The notes under the pieces are model-generated. The model had not been told where the DNA came from. It made no database searches and was given only the letters and a program-made list of their open reading frames with translations. The translations under genes were made by a program, and so were the position numbers. From UHGV virus genome UHGV-0202355: 17,538 bases of DNA, one strand, 5' to 3'. The stretch is from a virus. Below are positions 702-17,538 of the stretch, in pieces (positions within the stretch are counted from its first letter, which is position 1; each line of letters opens with the position of its first letter).

Positions 702-3700
702 TACCGATACGCTCCGCTTAACTGACCACCATCACGGGACTGCTGTTGCATAAAGTCCGCTGCTGCTTTTTTCCCGAGGTCATAAACCACCTTCAGGGCA
801 GCCGGACCTATCTGCCCGTTCGTACCATCGTTATTGATCTCGATGTTGTACTGCGGGGCAAACATCACCATACCTGAACCACCAATATCCGCCACAACTC
901 CCAGCTTGCCATCAGCACCACGACGCAGTGGCAGAATGGCTTCAGGCCCCGCTTCTCCCATCACACCCGCGCCTTTTGCAAAAGCAAAAAACGTCGGACG
1001 GTTAACCACCGTGCCACTGTAGCGACTCAAATCAGCAGACTGATAAACACCGCCATCCGCATTTGGCGTCACGCTGGCAGCTGCTGCACTCCCCCAGCCA
1101 AACGCCGAACCAATCCCCTTAACTGCCTGCATCATGGCCATCTGCGACATGATTTTTGCTAGATCAGAAAGGAGCGAGGCGGTAAAGGATTTGAAGTTCA
1201 GTTTTCCGGTGGTACAGAACGTCGCCAGTGCATTACCTGCGCTGTTAAATGCCGCTGTAAACATCTGCTCAGCGGTACCTGCCGCGTTATCCGCACTCTC
1301 TGTAAAATTCTGAAACGCCCGCATGGCACCGTTTTTCCAGTCTGCCTGCATCAGTTCCTGCTCCTGCCAGTAACGTCTGTTTTCGTTCAGTTGCCGGTTA
1401 AGACTGTCTGTCAGCATCTGCTCAGCATTCCGGTATTCATCTGTGCCGTATGTTCCTTTCTGCTTACTGTCACGCTCCAGCTGTTCCAGTTGCTGCTGGT
1501 ATTTTTGTTGCAGACTGAACTGCGCCTGGTATCGCTGACGCTGTTTATCCCCCATCCCTGTCGTGGCGATATCCAGGTCATGTTGCTGACGCAGAGTCCG
1601 TTCCTCTTCCGCCAGCTGGCTGGCAAGCTGAATAGATTTTTTCTTAAGGTCATTCAGCGCCGTCTGCTTCTGCAGCTCCTGCTGTTTTGCATCCAGCAGC
1701 GTCAGCGCCTGAATCAGTTCATCCTTATGCGCCAGCACGCTTTTTTCATCTGCCGTCAGCTTTTTACCGGCTAAATCACTGATACGCTGCTGCAGGGCCA
1801 GAAGCTGCTTATGCGCTTCCGTCATTTTTTCCGTGGTCAGTCCCGCGGACTGTCTGGCGGCGGCGATCTGCCCCTCCACCTGCGCCTGCTGCTGACTGTA
1901 CTGCAACAGCAACCGGGTAGCTTCATCATTGCGGTTTTCAGATGTTTTTTTCTTAATGGCTTTTTCGTAACGTTCATTTTCACGCTGTATCGCTGCGTCC
2001 CTGACCGCCTGATCGGCGTACTGCATGGCATTAATACGCGCAATTTCACGCTGATGTCGTGCTGCTTCCGTTTCGTTCATCCGGTTCAGCGCGGCATTTT
2101 CAGCATTCCGGCGTTTCTGCTGCTCCTGATAATTTCGCTCAGCCTGCTCTTTTGCATCCTGCAAATCCTGCTGGCGCTTTCGCTCTTGCAGCGCATCCAG
2201 TTGTTGCTGATCGTATTCCACCGTGGTGGACGCCTTAGTCCACGGAAATTTCTTCGCCCGCTGAATTTTTTCCTGCAGCGACGCAATCTGCGCATCAAGG
2301 GAATCTTCCCGACCAATGTTCATGGCCGCATCCCAGAACTGCTTCCACCAGTCAGACAAGGTTTGCAGCGTACTGCCCAGCGCATTGAGGTTATTATCAA
2401 TATCCGACGTACGTTTACCGGTTTCCTCTGCCAGTGCAGACATGGCTATCCGGGCGGCGTCACTGGTGCGCCCCTGCTCTCCGAGCACACGGATCTGTTC
2501 AAGCTGGGTGGCTGTCAGAAAATGCAGTTCATCATCCAGCGCCTTCGCAGCACTGACCGGATCATCCTTCAGCCGTTTAAACTGACTGATGGTGTCACTG
2601 ACAGACTGCCCTACCGAGCGTTCCATCTGTGCGGCAGCTTTCGCCACCATACCAATATCGTTACCGTGAAATGCACCGCTCCCCACTACCTGCGCCAGTG
2701 ACCCCGCCATGGCATGTTGCGTGATGCCATTACCGGAAAGATTTTTACTGAGCGCCCACAACTGCCCGACTGTCACACCGGCATAGTGTCCGGTGAGCTC
2801 AAGCTGCCGGTTAAAGGCTTCGCCTTCTTCCCGCCCCTCCATCCAGGCTTTACCCAGACCAATAACCGCAGCAGTGATCCCTCCGATAACCCCCCCCACC
2901 GCCAGGCCTTTCGGAGTCATTAATTTATCAATCCAGCCGGCACGGTTAGCCAGGGTGATCCCGGAGCCACGAAGCGCACCGAAATTACCCCGGGCAATTT
3001 CACCTATCAGAACACCCATCTCCTGGCGGGCCGCCGCACTTTTCAGCCCCAGCGAATGCGTGACCTTCCCGGCTTTTTCCATTTTGCTGATATACACCTC
3101 AGCCGCACTACTGACACCCAGCTGCGCGGCTTTTGCCCTGAGCAGCTCCGTGGATGAAAGATTCTGAGCGGATACCTGCTCCTTCAGCCGCCGGATAAAG
3201 GCCGTCTTCTGGCGGGCGGCGGATTCTTCAGCCTGAGCCAGCACGCGGGTTTTTGCCGTCACTTCGGAGATTAACGCCAGATAATCCTGCTGCGCGATGC
3301 CACCATTGTTTCTGGCCTGACGGACCTGCTGCTGAATACGCTGCAGCTCCTGCAGTCCGGCCCCCGCCTGTTTCACACTGTCAATCTGACGGTAAAATGC
3401 AGCAGCGGCTTTATCCTGAGCAGCAGCCAGTGCCGCCGCCTGCGCCTGCTCCTCGCGCATTTTCCGGTTCAGGGCATCAAGTCGCTGACGGGTCTTCTCC
3501 ACATTCTCCGCCAGCGAAACATGCTTCTGCGCATTCCCTGCCAGCGCCTGAGCCTGTTTCACTGCGGTGGTCGCCGCCTGCTTCTGACTCGCTTCAAACT
3601 GCCTGACCCGCGCCTCCGCACGCGCCGCTTCGCTGGCGGTACCGTTGAGCTGTGCTTTGATACGCGGAAGCTGTTCCTTAAAATCAGCCGCATCAACACT

Positions 3701-3733
3701 TAAATCAATAACAAGATCAGCTATCTGGCTCAA
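701..3733 (-). CDS. tail tape measure protein (lambda gpH-like), 1010 aa, probable TTG start
   Basis: Largest ORF in the window, sitting between the G/T chaperone pair and M. It has a long Q/A/E/R-rich coiled-coil middle region, hydrophobic Gly-rich segments and a conserved C-terminal region. The first codon at 3733-3731 is TTG, preceded by GGGAGG at 8 nt spacing; the next in-frame ATG is about 90 codons in. Confidence 0.9.
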   Translation of the reverse strand: MSQIADLVIDLSVDAADFKEQLPRIKAQLNGTASEAARAEARVRQFEASQKQAATTAVKQAQALAGNAQKHVSLAENVEKTRQRLDALNRKMREEQAQAAALAAAQDKAAAAFYRQIDSVKQAGAGLQELQRIQQQVRQARNNGGIAQQDYLALISEVTAKTRVLAQAEESAARQKTAFIRRLKEQVSAQNLSSTELLRAKAAQLGVSSAAEVYISKMEKAGKVTHSLGLKSAAARQEMGVLIGEIARGNFGALRGSGITLANRAGWIDKLMTPKGLAVGGVIGGITAAVIGLGKAWMEGREEGEAFNRQLELTGHYAGVTVGQLWALSKNLSGNGITQHAMAGSLAQVVGSGAFHGNDIGMVAKAAAQMERSVGQSVSDTISQFKRLKDDPVSAAKALDDELHFLTATQLEQIRVLGEQGRTSDAARIAMSALAEETGKRTSDIDNNLNALGSTLQTLSDWWKQFWDAAMNIGREDSLDAQIASLQEKIQRAKKFPWTKASTTVEYDQQQLDALQERKRQQDLQDAKEQAERNYQEQQKRRNAENAALNRMNETEAARHQREIARINAMQYADQAVRDAAIQRENERYEKAIKKKTSENRNDEATRLLLQYSQQQAQVEGQIAAARQSAGLTTEKMTEAHKQLLALQQRISDLAGKKLTADEKSVLAHKDELIQALTLLDAKQQELQKQTALNDLKKKSIQLASQLAEEERTLRQQHDLDIATTGMGDKQRQRYQAQFSLQQKYQQQLEQLERDSKQKGTYGTDEYRNAEQMLTDSLNRQLNENRRYWQEQELMQADWKNGAMRAFQNFTESADNAAGTAEQMFTAAFNSAGNALATFCTTGKLNFKSFTASLLSDLAKIMSQMAMMQAVKGIGSAFGWGSAAAASVTPNADGGVYQSADLSRYSGTVVNRPTFFAFAKGAGVMGEAGPEAILPLRRGADGKLGVVADIGGSGMVMFAPQYNIEINNDGTNGQIGPAALKVVYDLGKKAAADFMQQQSRDGGQLSGAYR

Positions 3734-4031
3734 TTCTTATTCCTCCCGCGATACCTTCCCCCAGAAACATCAGTTCTTCATCTGTCCGGACGAGCGCTTC
3801 TGTCTCTGAGGGCAACAGGCTGAACATATCCGCCGCTACGGTTTTTCCGGAAACCATCTGCACAATCAGCGTTTTCAGTGTGGCAAATTGCGCATCCAGC
3901 CACACATCACTGAAACTCTGCCGCCGGAAATAATCCCCCCACTCTCCCAGTTCTGTGGCTGACATTTCTGACAGCATTCGCCGCCAGTCGCCCCGCCGGA
4001 ACTCCCGGGCCAGCCGCATGACAAACTGCAT
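3717..4031 (-). CDS. tail assembly chaperone T segment (lambda gpT-like), expected to be made only as a G-T fusion by -1 frameshifting
   Basis: 104-aa ORF in the -1 frame relative to G, lying between G and the tape measure as in lambda. The T frame is open upstream to 4073, overlapping the end of G, and has no convincing SD of its own. Confidence 0.75.
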   Translation of the reverse strand: MQFVMRLAREFRRGDWRRMLSEMSATELGEWGDYFRRQSFSDVWLDAQFATLKTLIVQMVSGKTVAADMFSLLPSETEALVRTDEELMFLGEGIAGGIRIEPDS

Positions 4032-4039
4032 TTCCTGCG

Positions 4040-4429
4040 TCAGGACTTTTCCGGCGTCAGCACCTCCTTCACATCATCCCCCTCTGTCGCCACTGTCAGT
4101 GCCATACCGCTCAGCGCCAGAATGCTTTCCGCCGCCACCCCCAGCGCATCCCAGGACCATGTCACGCGCACGGAGGAAAAAAGCGCCGCCACATTCTGAG
4201 ACTGGTCGGCATTCCACAACGAACGGGAAACCAGCCAAGCGTTGATGTCCATCCCCATTTCCATAAAAGCAATCTGGCGGGCCCCTTCTTCCATTCCTGC
4301 AGAAGCCTCATCAAACTGCGCCGCGCGTTCACGGGCATAAGCCAGGTATTCCACACGCTGCAGACCAGACAGTTCATTCAGTACCACCGACTGATTGCCG
4401 TAATTAAACGTATCCTGTTTCAGAAACAT
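4040..4429 (-). CDS. tail assembly chaperone G (lambda gpG-like), 129 aa
   Basis: Starts MFLK like lambda gpG, has a similar length, and sits between V and T. GGGAG SD lies 7 nt upstream of the ATG at 4429. Confidence 0.85.
   Translation of the reverse strand: MFLKQDTFNYGNQSVVLNELSGLQRVEYLAYARERAAQFDEASAGMEEGARQIAFMEMGMDINAWLVSRSLWNADQSQNVAALFSSVRVTWSWDALGVAAESILALSGMALTVATEGDDVKEVLTPEKS
4046..4052 (-). promoter_or_regulatory. candidate -1 programmed ribosomal frameshift site (G GAA AAG) producing the G-T fusion
   Basis: The last codons of G read CCG GAA AAG TCC TGA; the -1 frame reads GGA AAA GTC CTG ACG CAG GAA ATG (T frame). This is the only slippery-like heptamer inside the 34-nt G/T overlap. 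An SD-like AAGGAGGTG (4069-4061) lies 8 nt upstream, an arrangement resembling the dnaX frameshift stimulator. Confidence 0.55.
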
Positions 4430-15437: not shown

Positions 15438-15635
15438 TCATTGATAATGATCATTTATTTTAACGCAGCATCTAACAGCGTCGACAATTTCACAGACCTG
15501 AGAGGCTGTATCGAAAAGCTGACGCGCTTTATCCAGGCTGACGCATCCCACCAATAAAAAAGGCACCAGTATCTCTACCAGTGCCCATTTCGCCGCCGTT
15601 CGCGGCATTCTGTGCGTCCAGTGTTTTCTGCTCAT
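15438..15635 (-). CDS. putative small lipoprotein (signal peptide with LLVGC lipobox), about 65 aa precursor
   Basis: Internal ATG 15635, 15 nt after the endolysin stop. Translation MSRKHWTHRMPRTAAKWALVEILVPFLLVGC|VSLDKARQLFDTASQVCEIVDAVRCCVKINDHYQ has a basic n-region, a hydrophobic h-region and an L-V-G-C lipobox. Not Pro-rich, so not a typical o-spanin. Confidence 0.45.
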   Translation of the reverse strand: MSRKHWTHRMPRTAAKWALVEILVPFLLVGCVSLDKARQLFDTASQVCEIVDAVRCCVKINDHYQ

Positions 15636-16687: not shown

Positions 16688-16704
16688 ACTTTTTTCTCCT
16701 GTAA

Positions 16705-16728
16705 ATAAAAAAGGGCCGCCAGCGGCCC
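16705..16728 (-). terminator. intrinsic terminator immediately upstream of the lysis cassette
   Basis: Minus strand reads GGGCCGC-UG-GCGGCCC followed by UUUUUUAUUU; plus-strand hairpin 16713-16728, A-run 16705-16712. Confidence 0.65.
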
Positions 16729-16815
16729 GTAATAAAACACCCCGTCGAAGGCATCCACCGATGTCTTTTATGTGATGTATTCAGATTCAATACACGTTGA
16801 GTGAAACGCAGATAT

Positions 16816-16839
16816 AAAAAAGGCCCGCCGCAGCGAACC
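16816..16839 (-). terminator. intrinsic terminator, related in sequence to those at 16705 and 15126
   Basis: Minus strand reads GGUUCGC-UGCG-GCGGGCC (two G-U pairs) followed by UUUUUUAU. Confidence 0.5.
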
Positions 16840-16861
16840 ATAAAGAAACGAGATTCTGAAT

Positions 16862-16887
16862 AAAAAAAACCGCCGGATACGGCGGTT
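16862..16887 (-). terminator. strong intrinsic terminator
   Basis: Minus strand reads AACCGCCG-UAUC-CGGCGGUU followed by a U-run of 8; plus-strand hairpin 16868-16887, A-run 16862-16869. Confidence 0.7.
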
Positions 16888-17248
16888 GGTCAATGCAAGA
16901 AATACATTCTTAATTGTAATAAAACCGAGGTGTCGGGTGCCTCCCGAAGTATTCCGTCCTGTATGAATACTGTGATTTCCCGTTAAACCGACTCTTTTAA
17001 CCACCCTCGCTCTGAGGAACACCCCGGTGGTGTTATTTACAACACCAGAATGATGCATCACCGACCCTGCCAGGAAATACAAAATCTCCACCAGCAATGC
17101 ACCATTCTGCTGTCGCAGAAAAATCAGCACTGAGGCTAACCTGGCCTCAAATCATAGCCAGAGAACAGAATGCTTTTTCAAAACAACCTGCTCCCACGTA
17201 ATAAAAAATACGCCAGTGCTGCAATACAATAAGGCTTATTTCAAATGC

Positions 17249-17323
<75 letters not shown>

Positions 17324-17326
17324 ATA

Positions 17327-17402
<76 letters not shown>

Positions 17403-17538
17403 ATTGGTTCCTCAGGAAAAATAAAAATGACCGCGCTTTACATCTCCCTTGGAACCGCAGGGAATATTAATGAGGACAGATACTTTTTCAATTAAAAACT
17501 GTGTCAATATTCGTAAATATATGTATAAATTTCTATTA

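Follow-up and report, generated by a model that had tools for sequence, protein, structure and literature searches.

Morons of lambdoid phages are cassettes of a promoter, a gene and a terminator inserted between phage genes. In phage lambda, the terminator tR′ lies directly downstream of PR′/qut, ahead of the late genes reached by Q-modified polymerase, and a short terminated RNA is made in the lysogen (lambda 6S RNA; StxS in Stx phages, PMC7547250). In phage 933W, the late region reads pR′, qut, terminators, the putative transfer RNA (tRNA) promoter pT, tRNAs, a terminator, stx2AB, the STnc100 RNA and, further on, the S holin gene (PMC12370729, PMC12711010). Here we compare with these systems a 560-bp interval (positions 16688–17248) located between a tRNA-Gly gene and a holin gene in the UHGV virus genome UHGV-0202355. 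The whole stretch analysed, called the window below, is 17,538 nt long and corresponds, by gene, Pfam and tRNA annotation, to the late (−) strand region of a lambdoid prophage; features are on this strand unless otherwise stated, and their order follows transcription. In the reading that we favour, and consider reasonably probable, a small non-coding transcription unit is embedded in the lambdoid late operon, and the interval holds its 3′ half and, behind it, a stack of insulating terminators (T1, T2 and T3). Left blank or called a hypothetical protein in annotations, the stretch is thus reassigned as a structured RNA locus.

As in 933W, a candidate tRNA promoter and tRNAs lie inside a Q-dependent late operon, and an intrinsic terminator, an RNA of the STnc100 type and the lysis cassette come after them. 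The tRNAs are, however, Thr and Gly here and Ile, Arg and Arg in 933W, no toxin or esterase gene is present, the holin belongs to a different family (Phage_holin_8), three consecutive terminators abut its gene, and a methylase gene stands between Q and the tRNAs. With lambda the locus shares terminators placed before late genes for Q-modified polymerase and a (here predicted) short terminated RNA in the lysogen; whereas tR′ adjoins PR′/qut, T1–T3 lie farther on and would stop transcripts from other promoters. The locus also resembles a moron in combining an autonomous candidate promoter, a cargo (tRNAs and a small RNA, sRNA) and a terminator within the late operon, next to a slot whose cargo differs among relatives, but the cargo here is wholly non-coding and its expression in the lysogen is a prediction. 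An arrangement in which a structured RNA is followed by terminators shielding the lysis genes is ordinary for lambda-like prophages; the locus is within known phage biology throughout and leaves the current understanding of lambdoid late regulation unchanged.

A first-pass annotation made from the sequence alone had described the interval as a non-coding spacer and mentioned, as an aside, a small RNA ending at the terminators. That small RNA turned out to be the main content of the interval, which is no inert DNA: it encodes a conserved and extensively structured RNA of about 390 nt, of which an STnc100/PasD-like sRNA is part. The 394 nt between the end of tRNA-Gly and T1 fold at −144.3 kcal/mol, compared with −109 ± 5.5 kcal/mol for shuffled sequences (z −6.5), and conservation over the 390 nt before T1 exceeds that expected of a neutral spacer. 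A permissive Rfam scan detected a match to STnc100 (RF02076) at 16858–17053, ending at T1 and covering the full length of the model (model positions 1–206; 28.6 bits, E 2e-4). The core of the element (16924–17028) is made of five helices, in which P1 (GGGGUG/CACCUC) closes around the hairpins P2–P4 and P5 (CGGG-AGGCA-CCCG). Each helix of this architecture, in which a tail and an intrinsic terminator come after a closing helix around four hairpins, has its counterpart in the Rfam STnc100 consensus structure. We gathered 26 distinct relatives of the element from Escherichia coli genomes and viral contigs (69–100% identity). Over these variants, 95.4% of the cells at the 44 core pairs are paired, against 45–56% in slid controls, and compensatory double changes affect nine pairs, five of them in P4 and two in P1 (0–3 pairs in the controls). 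The core is followed by an A/U-rich single-stranded 3′ tail (16888–16923) that is variable in the alignments save for UGCAUUGACC (16897–16888). The latter is a candidate sRNA seed; the seed of PasD has the equivalent position, just ahead of the PasD terminator (PMC8550237 supplement).

The STnc100 RNA of 933W, which lies 75 nt past stxB2 and scores 207.7 bits, has been equated with the Hfq-binding EcOnc27/sRNA103, encoded downstream of stx2B in Stx2 phages (PMC12711010; PMC12370729), and was related to PasD1 and PasD2 in a 2026 preprint (bioRxiv 10.64898/2026.05.13.724894). The PasD RNAs of enteropathogenic E. coli (EPEC) E2348/69 are Hfq-dependent, Northern-validated and encoded beside Q and holin-lysozyme genes (PMC8550237; bioRxiv 10.64898/2026.05.13.724894). 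Members of the family bind Hfq and are expressed without induction (PMC8550237, PMC5331693). The window element has the same prophage context, in the late region between Q/tRNAs and the lysis genes; in Salmonella diarizonae (L012; L numbers designate the loci compared) the gene order is likewise tRNA, tRNA, STnc100. It also shares with STnc100 and PasD a size of ~170–200 nt, the order of the helices, the CGGG-AGGCA-CCCG hairpin beside the 3′ strand CACC and, after an A/U-rich tail, an intrinsic terminator whose U tract is long. The 3′ motif of the family, CAC-CGGGAGGCACCCGGCACC, is present with one change (CGGGAGGCACCCGACACC, 16946–16929); the 5′ motif GGUGAAUCCCCCUGUGCGGAGGGGC is not kept, the window carrying GGGGUGUUCCUCAGAGCGAGGG instead. 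A covariance model built from the window-type core alone recovered genuine STnc100 copies over their full length at 20–32 bits among loci preselected by a shared 18-mer, whereas chance carriers of this 18-mer scored 8–16 bits, with one at 20.3. Among 5,426 complete E. coli genomes, 308 (~6%) contain an element of the window type, mostly without any annotated feature; the laboratory strain E. coli W (NC_017635.1, 1518218–1519516) is one of them and displays the same architecture.

Unlike STnc100 and PasD, the window sRNA is fused to a conserved 195-nt tRNA trailer containing a long hairpin. Consensus folds computed from 14 and 20 relatives retain three parts, namely two trailer domains and the sRNA core (17028–16924). 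The branched domain I (17119–17221), also present in the single-sequence fold, is closed by CAGCACUG/CAGUGCUG (17221–17214 with 17132–17125), followed by AUUUUU. Domain II (17036–17119), directly upstream of the core, is an imperfect hairpin of ~34 bp in the consensus fold and may be a processing site of the RNase III type. In the trailer domains, 98.4% of the cells are paired (40–56% in slid controls), and four pairs show compensatory changes; helices 7 and 8 of domain II, with 31 pairs, are 98.6–98.8% paired and include one such pair. The 80 nt upstream of the sRNA are almost invariant and correspond to the 3′ arm of the long hairpin. A pairing of the first 25 nt of the trailer with the sRNA tail, seen in the single-sequence fold, was lost in the consensus of 20 relatives and was discarded.

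All three intrinsic terminators that the first-pass annotation had listed on the late strand were recovered by a consensus scan for a hairpin followed by a T tract; the same scan detected no such site on the + strand of the interval. T1 (AACCGCCGTATCCGGCGGTT and T8; 16887–16868, whole element 16887–16860) has an 8-bp stem and a U8 tract (−13.4 kcal/mol, z −3.5). T2 (GGTTCGCTGCGGCGGGCC and T6; 16839–16822, whole element 16839–16816; −12.0 kcal/mol, z −2.7) begins 21 nt past the T tract of T1, and T3 (GGGCCGCTGGCGGCCC and T6; −12.6 kcal/mol, z −2.5) has its stem at 16728–16713 and its T tract reaching 16707 (element 16728–16705). A weak fourth site, T0 (17150–17130; −9.1 kcal/mol, z −1.2), overlooked earlier, is located inside trailer domain I. 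The hairpin energies of T1–T3 each beat those of nearly all shuffles, and the region contains nine terminator-type sites compared with 2.6 ± 1.6 in shuffled sequence. Late-strand sites with at least five G-C pairs number seven in the whole window, three of which fall within this 183-bp stretch; by a rough estimate, the chance of such clustering under a uniform spread is ~4e-5. T3 had been reported to end 18 nt before the Shine-Dalgarno (SD) sequence of the holin gene. This distance in fact separates its T tract from the holin ATG (16687), and the gap to the SD sequence (AGGAG, 16700–16696) is 7 nt.

The three terminators differ in their distribution among relatives. The stem of T1 is intact in 26 of 26, with a variable loop sequence, and in most of them homology of the tRNA-sRNA module stops exactly at the end of T1, which is the sRNA's own terminator and 3′ end. 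T2 is retained upstream of a TerB cassette in L003, as well as in L147, L156 and L163, and is missing from many others. Together with a degenerate hairpin (H, 16765–16750), T3 forms a holin leader (16705–16765) that moves with the holin gene. A T3-type hairpin and T tract precede the SD sequence in 34 of 35 holin loci, the exception being L131, in which the left arm is replaced, and the T3-holin piece is common to phage P27 (from 16781 downstream) and many prophages. T2 is the left edge and T3 the right edge of an empty cargo slot.

Upstream of the interval, a candidate sigma-70 promoter (P_tRNA, 17464–17491) sits 62 nt before tRNA-Thr, with a −35 box TTGAAA (17491–17486), a 16-nt spacer and a −10 box TAATAT (17469–17464). 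The hexamers and their spacing are invariant in 12 distinct relatives and the sequence of the spacer varies; fixed hexamers with a variable spacer are the usual mark of a working promoter. The annotated pT of 933W is found at the analogous place, and in L175 a promoter-like site without homology to P_tRNA is equally far from the tRNA-Thr gene. P_tRNA thus probably drives tRNA-Thr, tRNA-Gly and the sRNA in the lysogen. PasD1 has its own promoter (TTGACT-18-TAAAAA-7-G), and many genuine STnc100 copies have TTGACA-type promoters with a start site at P1. In the window, a −10-like TAAATA precedes P1 by 7 nt, as is usual for the family, but no acceptable −35 box lies 16–18 nt further upstream, and a promoter scan was blank there; release of the sRNA from the tRNA precursor, possibly at the ~34-bp hairpin, is therefore the probable route, rather than transcription from a promoter of its own. 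A bolder proposal, which we regard as speculative, is that the ~390-nt trailer is a single precursor in which cleavage directed by this hairpin releases an sRNA of the STnc100 class from a tRNA operon. If true, this would be a tRNA-linked, promoter-less route to this prophage sRNA family.

A Q-type gene (DUF1133, E 2.5e-103; Phage_antitermQ, 28.2 bits for a cutoff of 26) was identified with Pfam upstream of the tRNAs in two near copies of the window: an IMG/VR contig (L157), which shows one visible mismatch and reaches 2.2 kb further upstream, and a metagenome scaffold (L180), identical over 17538–15400. In L157, at most 110 nt past the Q stop codon, a promoter-like TTGATT-17-TTCAAT and a terminator AACCCGC-tttat-GCGGGTT with T7 (~640–668) are present; a small open reading frame (ORF) and a DNA methylase gene occupy the stretch between Q and the tRNAs. 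A post-Q motif, TTG(A/C)(T/A)TTTT...ATAAACTG(T/C)TTCAAT...GCTTCGCAAAGCTGTA(C/T)CGCGAGGCGAA followed by a strong terminator, is common to L157 (557–668) and L175 (2150–2272). It is a candidate PR′/qut/tR′ for Q proteins of the DUF1133 type and would give a short RNA of ~75–80 nt. This Q-proximal site lies outside the window, ~1.7 to >2.2 kb upstream of T1–T3.

These data bear on the earlier proposal that the three terminators are a tR′-like barrier making the lysis and morphogenesis genes dependent on Q-type antitermination. A dependence on Q is supported: the terminators face the lysis genes, a Q gene is present upstream, and the 18 nt between T3 and the holin ATG leave no room for a promoter, so that every holin transcript must read through T3. 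The equivalence with tR′ is not supported, since the first terminator after the candidate PR′ adjoins Q instead (in L157, with the same motif in L175); T1–T3 are extra insulators. Their position suggests that they are read through by Q-modified polymerase, and their most plausible specific job is to shield the holin from the tRNA/sRNA promoter, predicted to be active in the lysogen. Further strong late-strand intrinsic terminators are located at 14027–14046, 15129–15150 and 15561–15586, between the endolysin and terminase genes, interleaved with ORFs without Pfam match (15173–15379, 14812–15213, 14324–14689, 14068–14313 and 13709–14011). This stretch looks like a second moron-rich region that late transcription must also read through; T1–T3 and the terminators at 15586, 15150 and 14046 would be extra barriers passable only by a terminator-resistant polymerase.

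The comparison of ~60 related loci, a check proposed with the first-pass annotation, uncovered inserts of 0.3–1.3 kb and a mosaic of two modules. One runs from the tRNAs through the exact end of T1, and the other starts 30–80 nt before T3 and carries the holin gene. Homology to L003 breaks off at 16807; it returns at 16787, a position matching the final 11 nt of the DUF3927 gene of L003, and the empty cargo junction of the window is thus at 16788–16806. The slot is occupied by TerB and DUF3927 genes in L003, L145, L147, L153 and L182, by a 126-aa ORF in L167, by a 174-aa ORF in L181, by a second copy of the sRNA in L150, L164 and L170, and by ~300 bp of non-coding DNA in L175 (3063–3363), L176 (3191–3466), L177 (3181–3439) and L185 (E. 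coli W). Unrelated inserts at one junction in otherwise homologous prophages are what defines a moron site, and the conserved promoter hexamers and terminators would provide the moron parts. In phage P27, stx2e is followed by a fragment of a DUF3927-like gene and then by the same T3-holin module. An empty cargo site at the position of stxAB in Stx phages had been suspected on account of the whole interval; relatives do carry cargo, and stx2e of P27 does lie upstream of the T3-holin module, but the slot is limited to ~70 nt between T1/T2 and T3. The junction 16807/16787, now pinpointed, should be useful for screening prophages for cargo.

Two further observations concern the slot. The ~300-bp non-coding inserts contain several G+C-rich hairpins, one of them a terminator-like site on the − strand; they have no ORF of at least 45 codons and no Rfam match at E 0.1, and may correspond to another unannotated RNA. 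In the LT-IIb toxin prophage SerU-LTIIb (L001, KU052038), the segment comprising the tRNAs, the trailer, the sRNA-like element, T3 and the holin gene is duplicated in tandem (996–4172), with the first holin copy truncated; the enterotoxin genes of this phage are located past the endolysin, outside the slot that precedes the holin. A literature search on this prophage gave no pertinent result.

The following model builds on what the sequences show: terminators, a conserved RNA structure, module boundaries, cargo in relatives, a Q gene upstream and promoter hexamers that are conserved. The sigma-70 promoter at 17491–17464 would drive a transcript comprising tRNA-Thr, tRNA-Gly and a structured trailer of ~390 nt. 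The last ~200 nt of this trailer (17053–16858) would be a divergent sRNA of the STnc100/PasD type ending at T1, whose hairpin and U8 tract would form an Hfq-type 3′ end, and this sRNA would be cut out of the precursor of the tRNAs, for which the ~34-bp hairpin is a possible site. T1, T2 and T3 would halt Q-independent transcription ahead of the holin gene, whose leaky expression would be lethal in the lysogen, with T2 and T3 doubling as the edges of a moron slot that is empty here. Upon induction, Q-modified polymerase starting at PR′ would cross T1–T3 and the further terminators to reach the lysis and morphogenesis genes. Transcription in the lysogen, the efficiency of termination, processing of the precursor, read-through by Q-modified polymerase and a regulatory target of the sRNA are predictions of this model. 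Stacked terminators would also allow a tRNA/sRNA cassette active in the lysogen to be kept only ~170 nt upstream of a holin gene, a point relevant to prophage safety.

Several facts count against this model. The STnc100 score of the window element (28.6 bits) falls short of the Rfam gathering threshold of 47 bits, none of 13 loci with window-type copies reaches that threshold, and the sRNA of L175, 87% identical to that of the window, has no Rfam match even at E 0.1. The hallmark GGUGAAUCCCCC...GGGGC hairpin of the family is replaced by GGGGUGUUCCUCAGAGCGAGGG. With the window-type covariance model, the 933W archetype scores 20.3 bits, no higher than the top chance control, and PasD goes undetected; a BLAST search for direct similarity of PasA, PasD1 and PasD2 to the spacer yielded chance words only. 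Homology to the family therefore rests on architecture, context and the shared 18-nt motif more than on score. Genuine family members own a promoter, and the window copy, devoid of a −35 box, could be poorly expressed. Domains I and II vary little among relatives and show few compensatory changes, and their structure was derived from the sequences on which it was tested. Finally, the stacked terminators could be mere leftovers of mosaic recombination. As for the threshold, the validated PasD1 and PasD2 are themselves below it (37.7–41.4 bits). We regard the family link to STnc100/PasD as likely, at the edge of detectability, and the window sRNA as a probable divergent, unannotated subfamily, with which the family would reach below the Rfam threshold.

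Other explanations of the interval have to be weighed against our model of a tRNA-sRNA unit followed by insulators. The three strong terminators, the upstream Q gene and the lack of space for a promoter between T3 and the holin gene are also what one would see if the DNA were functionally empty and acted only as a tR′-like block making the late genes Q-dependent. We consider this improbable: the canonical promoter-proximal terminator adjoins Q, elsewhere upstream, and a pure barrier accounts neither for the conservation and folding energy of the 390 nt before T1 (z −6.5), nor for the compensatory changes in the core, nor for the fact that T1 travels as part of the RNA module and T3 as part of the holin module. 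That the terminators and the sRNA-like element are decaying, functionless remnants at module junctions appears more improbable still. The junctions do coincide with terminators, the sRNA scores under the Rfam threshold and is without a −35 box, and T2 is missing in many relatives, but compensatory changes preserve the helices over 69–100% identity, the element persists in 308 of 5,426 complete E. coli genomes, and 34 of 35 holin loci retain T3.

A closer competitor, to which we give a minor but real chance, treats the sRNA as a gene in its own right, expressed from a promoter of its own and unconnected with transcription of the tRNAs; the trailer would then be a regulatory region or a separate RNA. 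The −35/−10 pair and P1 start site of genuine copies, the TAAATA at the homologous position of the window and the nearly invariant 80 nt upstream argue for it; the absence of an acceptable −35 box at 16–18 nt and the blank promoter scan argue for release from the tRNA precursor instead, and the invariant stretch is explained as the 3′ arm of the long hairpin. The least credible explanation, to which we attach almost no weight, is that the interval codes for a protein. The first-pass annotation had seen no convincing ORF, and we concur. The only long ORF, of 120 aa with a GTG start (16768–17130), is labelled a hypothetical protein by some pipelines and is annotated by gene callers in L176 and L179, but it has no match in a Pfam search, it crosses T1 and T2, and single-base indels between relatives fall within it. 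The frame is open in the nearest relatives only and is interrupted in 14 of 18 others, whose longest open stretches range from 37 to 99 codons.

Further candidates for RNA functions or promoters in the region were discarded. Other weak Rfam matches (TarB, STnc240, isrK, OmrA-B, RNAI and miRNA precursors) each span only a terminator or the long hairpin and are attributed to chance; the domain II hairpin accounts for the spurious miRNA-precursor matches in the E-value scan. We rejected an antiterminator function of the put type for the core on the ground that family members stop at their own terminators and accumulate as RNAs of 170–200 nt, and an antisense sRNA of the AsxR/PasA type on the ground that no hairpin followed by a T tract exists on the + strand and no Rfam match was obtained. 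A sigma-54 promoter suspected by eye in the trailer (TGGCA...TGCA) has a GG-to-GC spacing of 13 nt and not 10. The best promoter-like match of the region (10/12), TCGGCA-16-TATAAT at 17335–17308, recurs wherever these tRNAs occur and was considered coincidental; it reaches from the end of tRNA-Thr into the D-arm of tRNA-Gly and is probably a by-product of the tRNA sequence.

Outside the window, genuine STnc100 copies occur in tandem arrays of two to five copies, ~220–270 nt apart (L010, L039, L055, L061, L062, L063, L089, L101, L105, L116 and L122). The hosts are Enterobacter, Superficieibacter, Pantoea and other Enterobacterales; the arrays are often mixed with tRNA genes and isrI, and each copy has its own promoter-like element and terminator. 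In L028, L029, L036 and L084, the core motif CAC-CGGGAGGCACCCGGCACC is followed within 30–45 nt by an SD sequence and an ATG in place of the terminator; L029 meets the Rfam threshold with 47.8 bits. Some members of the STnc100 family may thus act as 5′ leaders of protein genes. Elsewhere in Enterobacterales, the core is found in tandem arrays, beside tRNAs and ahead of ORFs. It could therefore have a function of its own as a structured module, for instance in protein binding or stability, and not be a passive carrier of the seed.

The two tRNA genes upstream of the interval were identified with ARAGORN as tRNA-Thr(UGU) (17327–17402; Rfam tRNA 72.2 bits) and tRNA-Gly(UCC) (17249–17323; 65.6 bits). 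Matching chromosomal tRNA genes, mostly 95–99% identical to them, exist in 5,421 of the 5,426 complete E. coli genomes, and their Salmonella matches fall under tRNA-Tyr, tRNA-Thr and tRNA-Gly features; the pair looks as if it had been captured from a host tRNA operon. The holin gene (16687–16295), found in the ORF list and the first that the terminators would shield, encodes a Phage_holin_8 protein of 130 aa (PF16931, E 1.2e-22) and is followed, according to Pfam, by a second holin gene (Phage_holin_3_7) and an M15 endolysin gene. Beyond these come small ORFs without Pfam match, DUF1441, a gpA-type large terminase, a lambda-family portal protein, a ClpP-capsid fusion and a tape-measure protein. 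The fusion corresponds to a 750-aa ORF (6937–9189) with a ClpP-type protease domain and a major capsid domain in one frame. The TTG start listed for this ORF overlaps the 3′ end of the portal gene (8942–10447), so that its true start is probably located further downstream.

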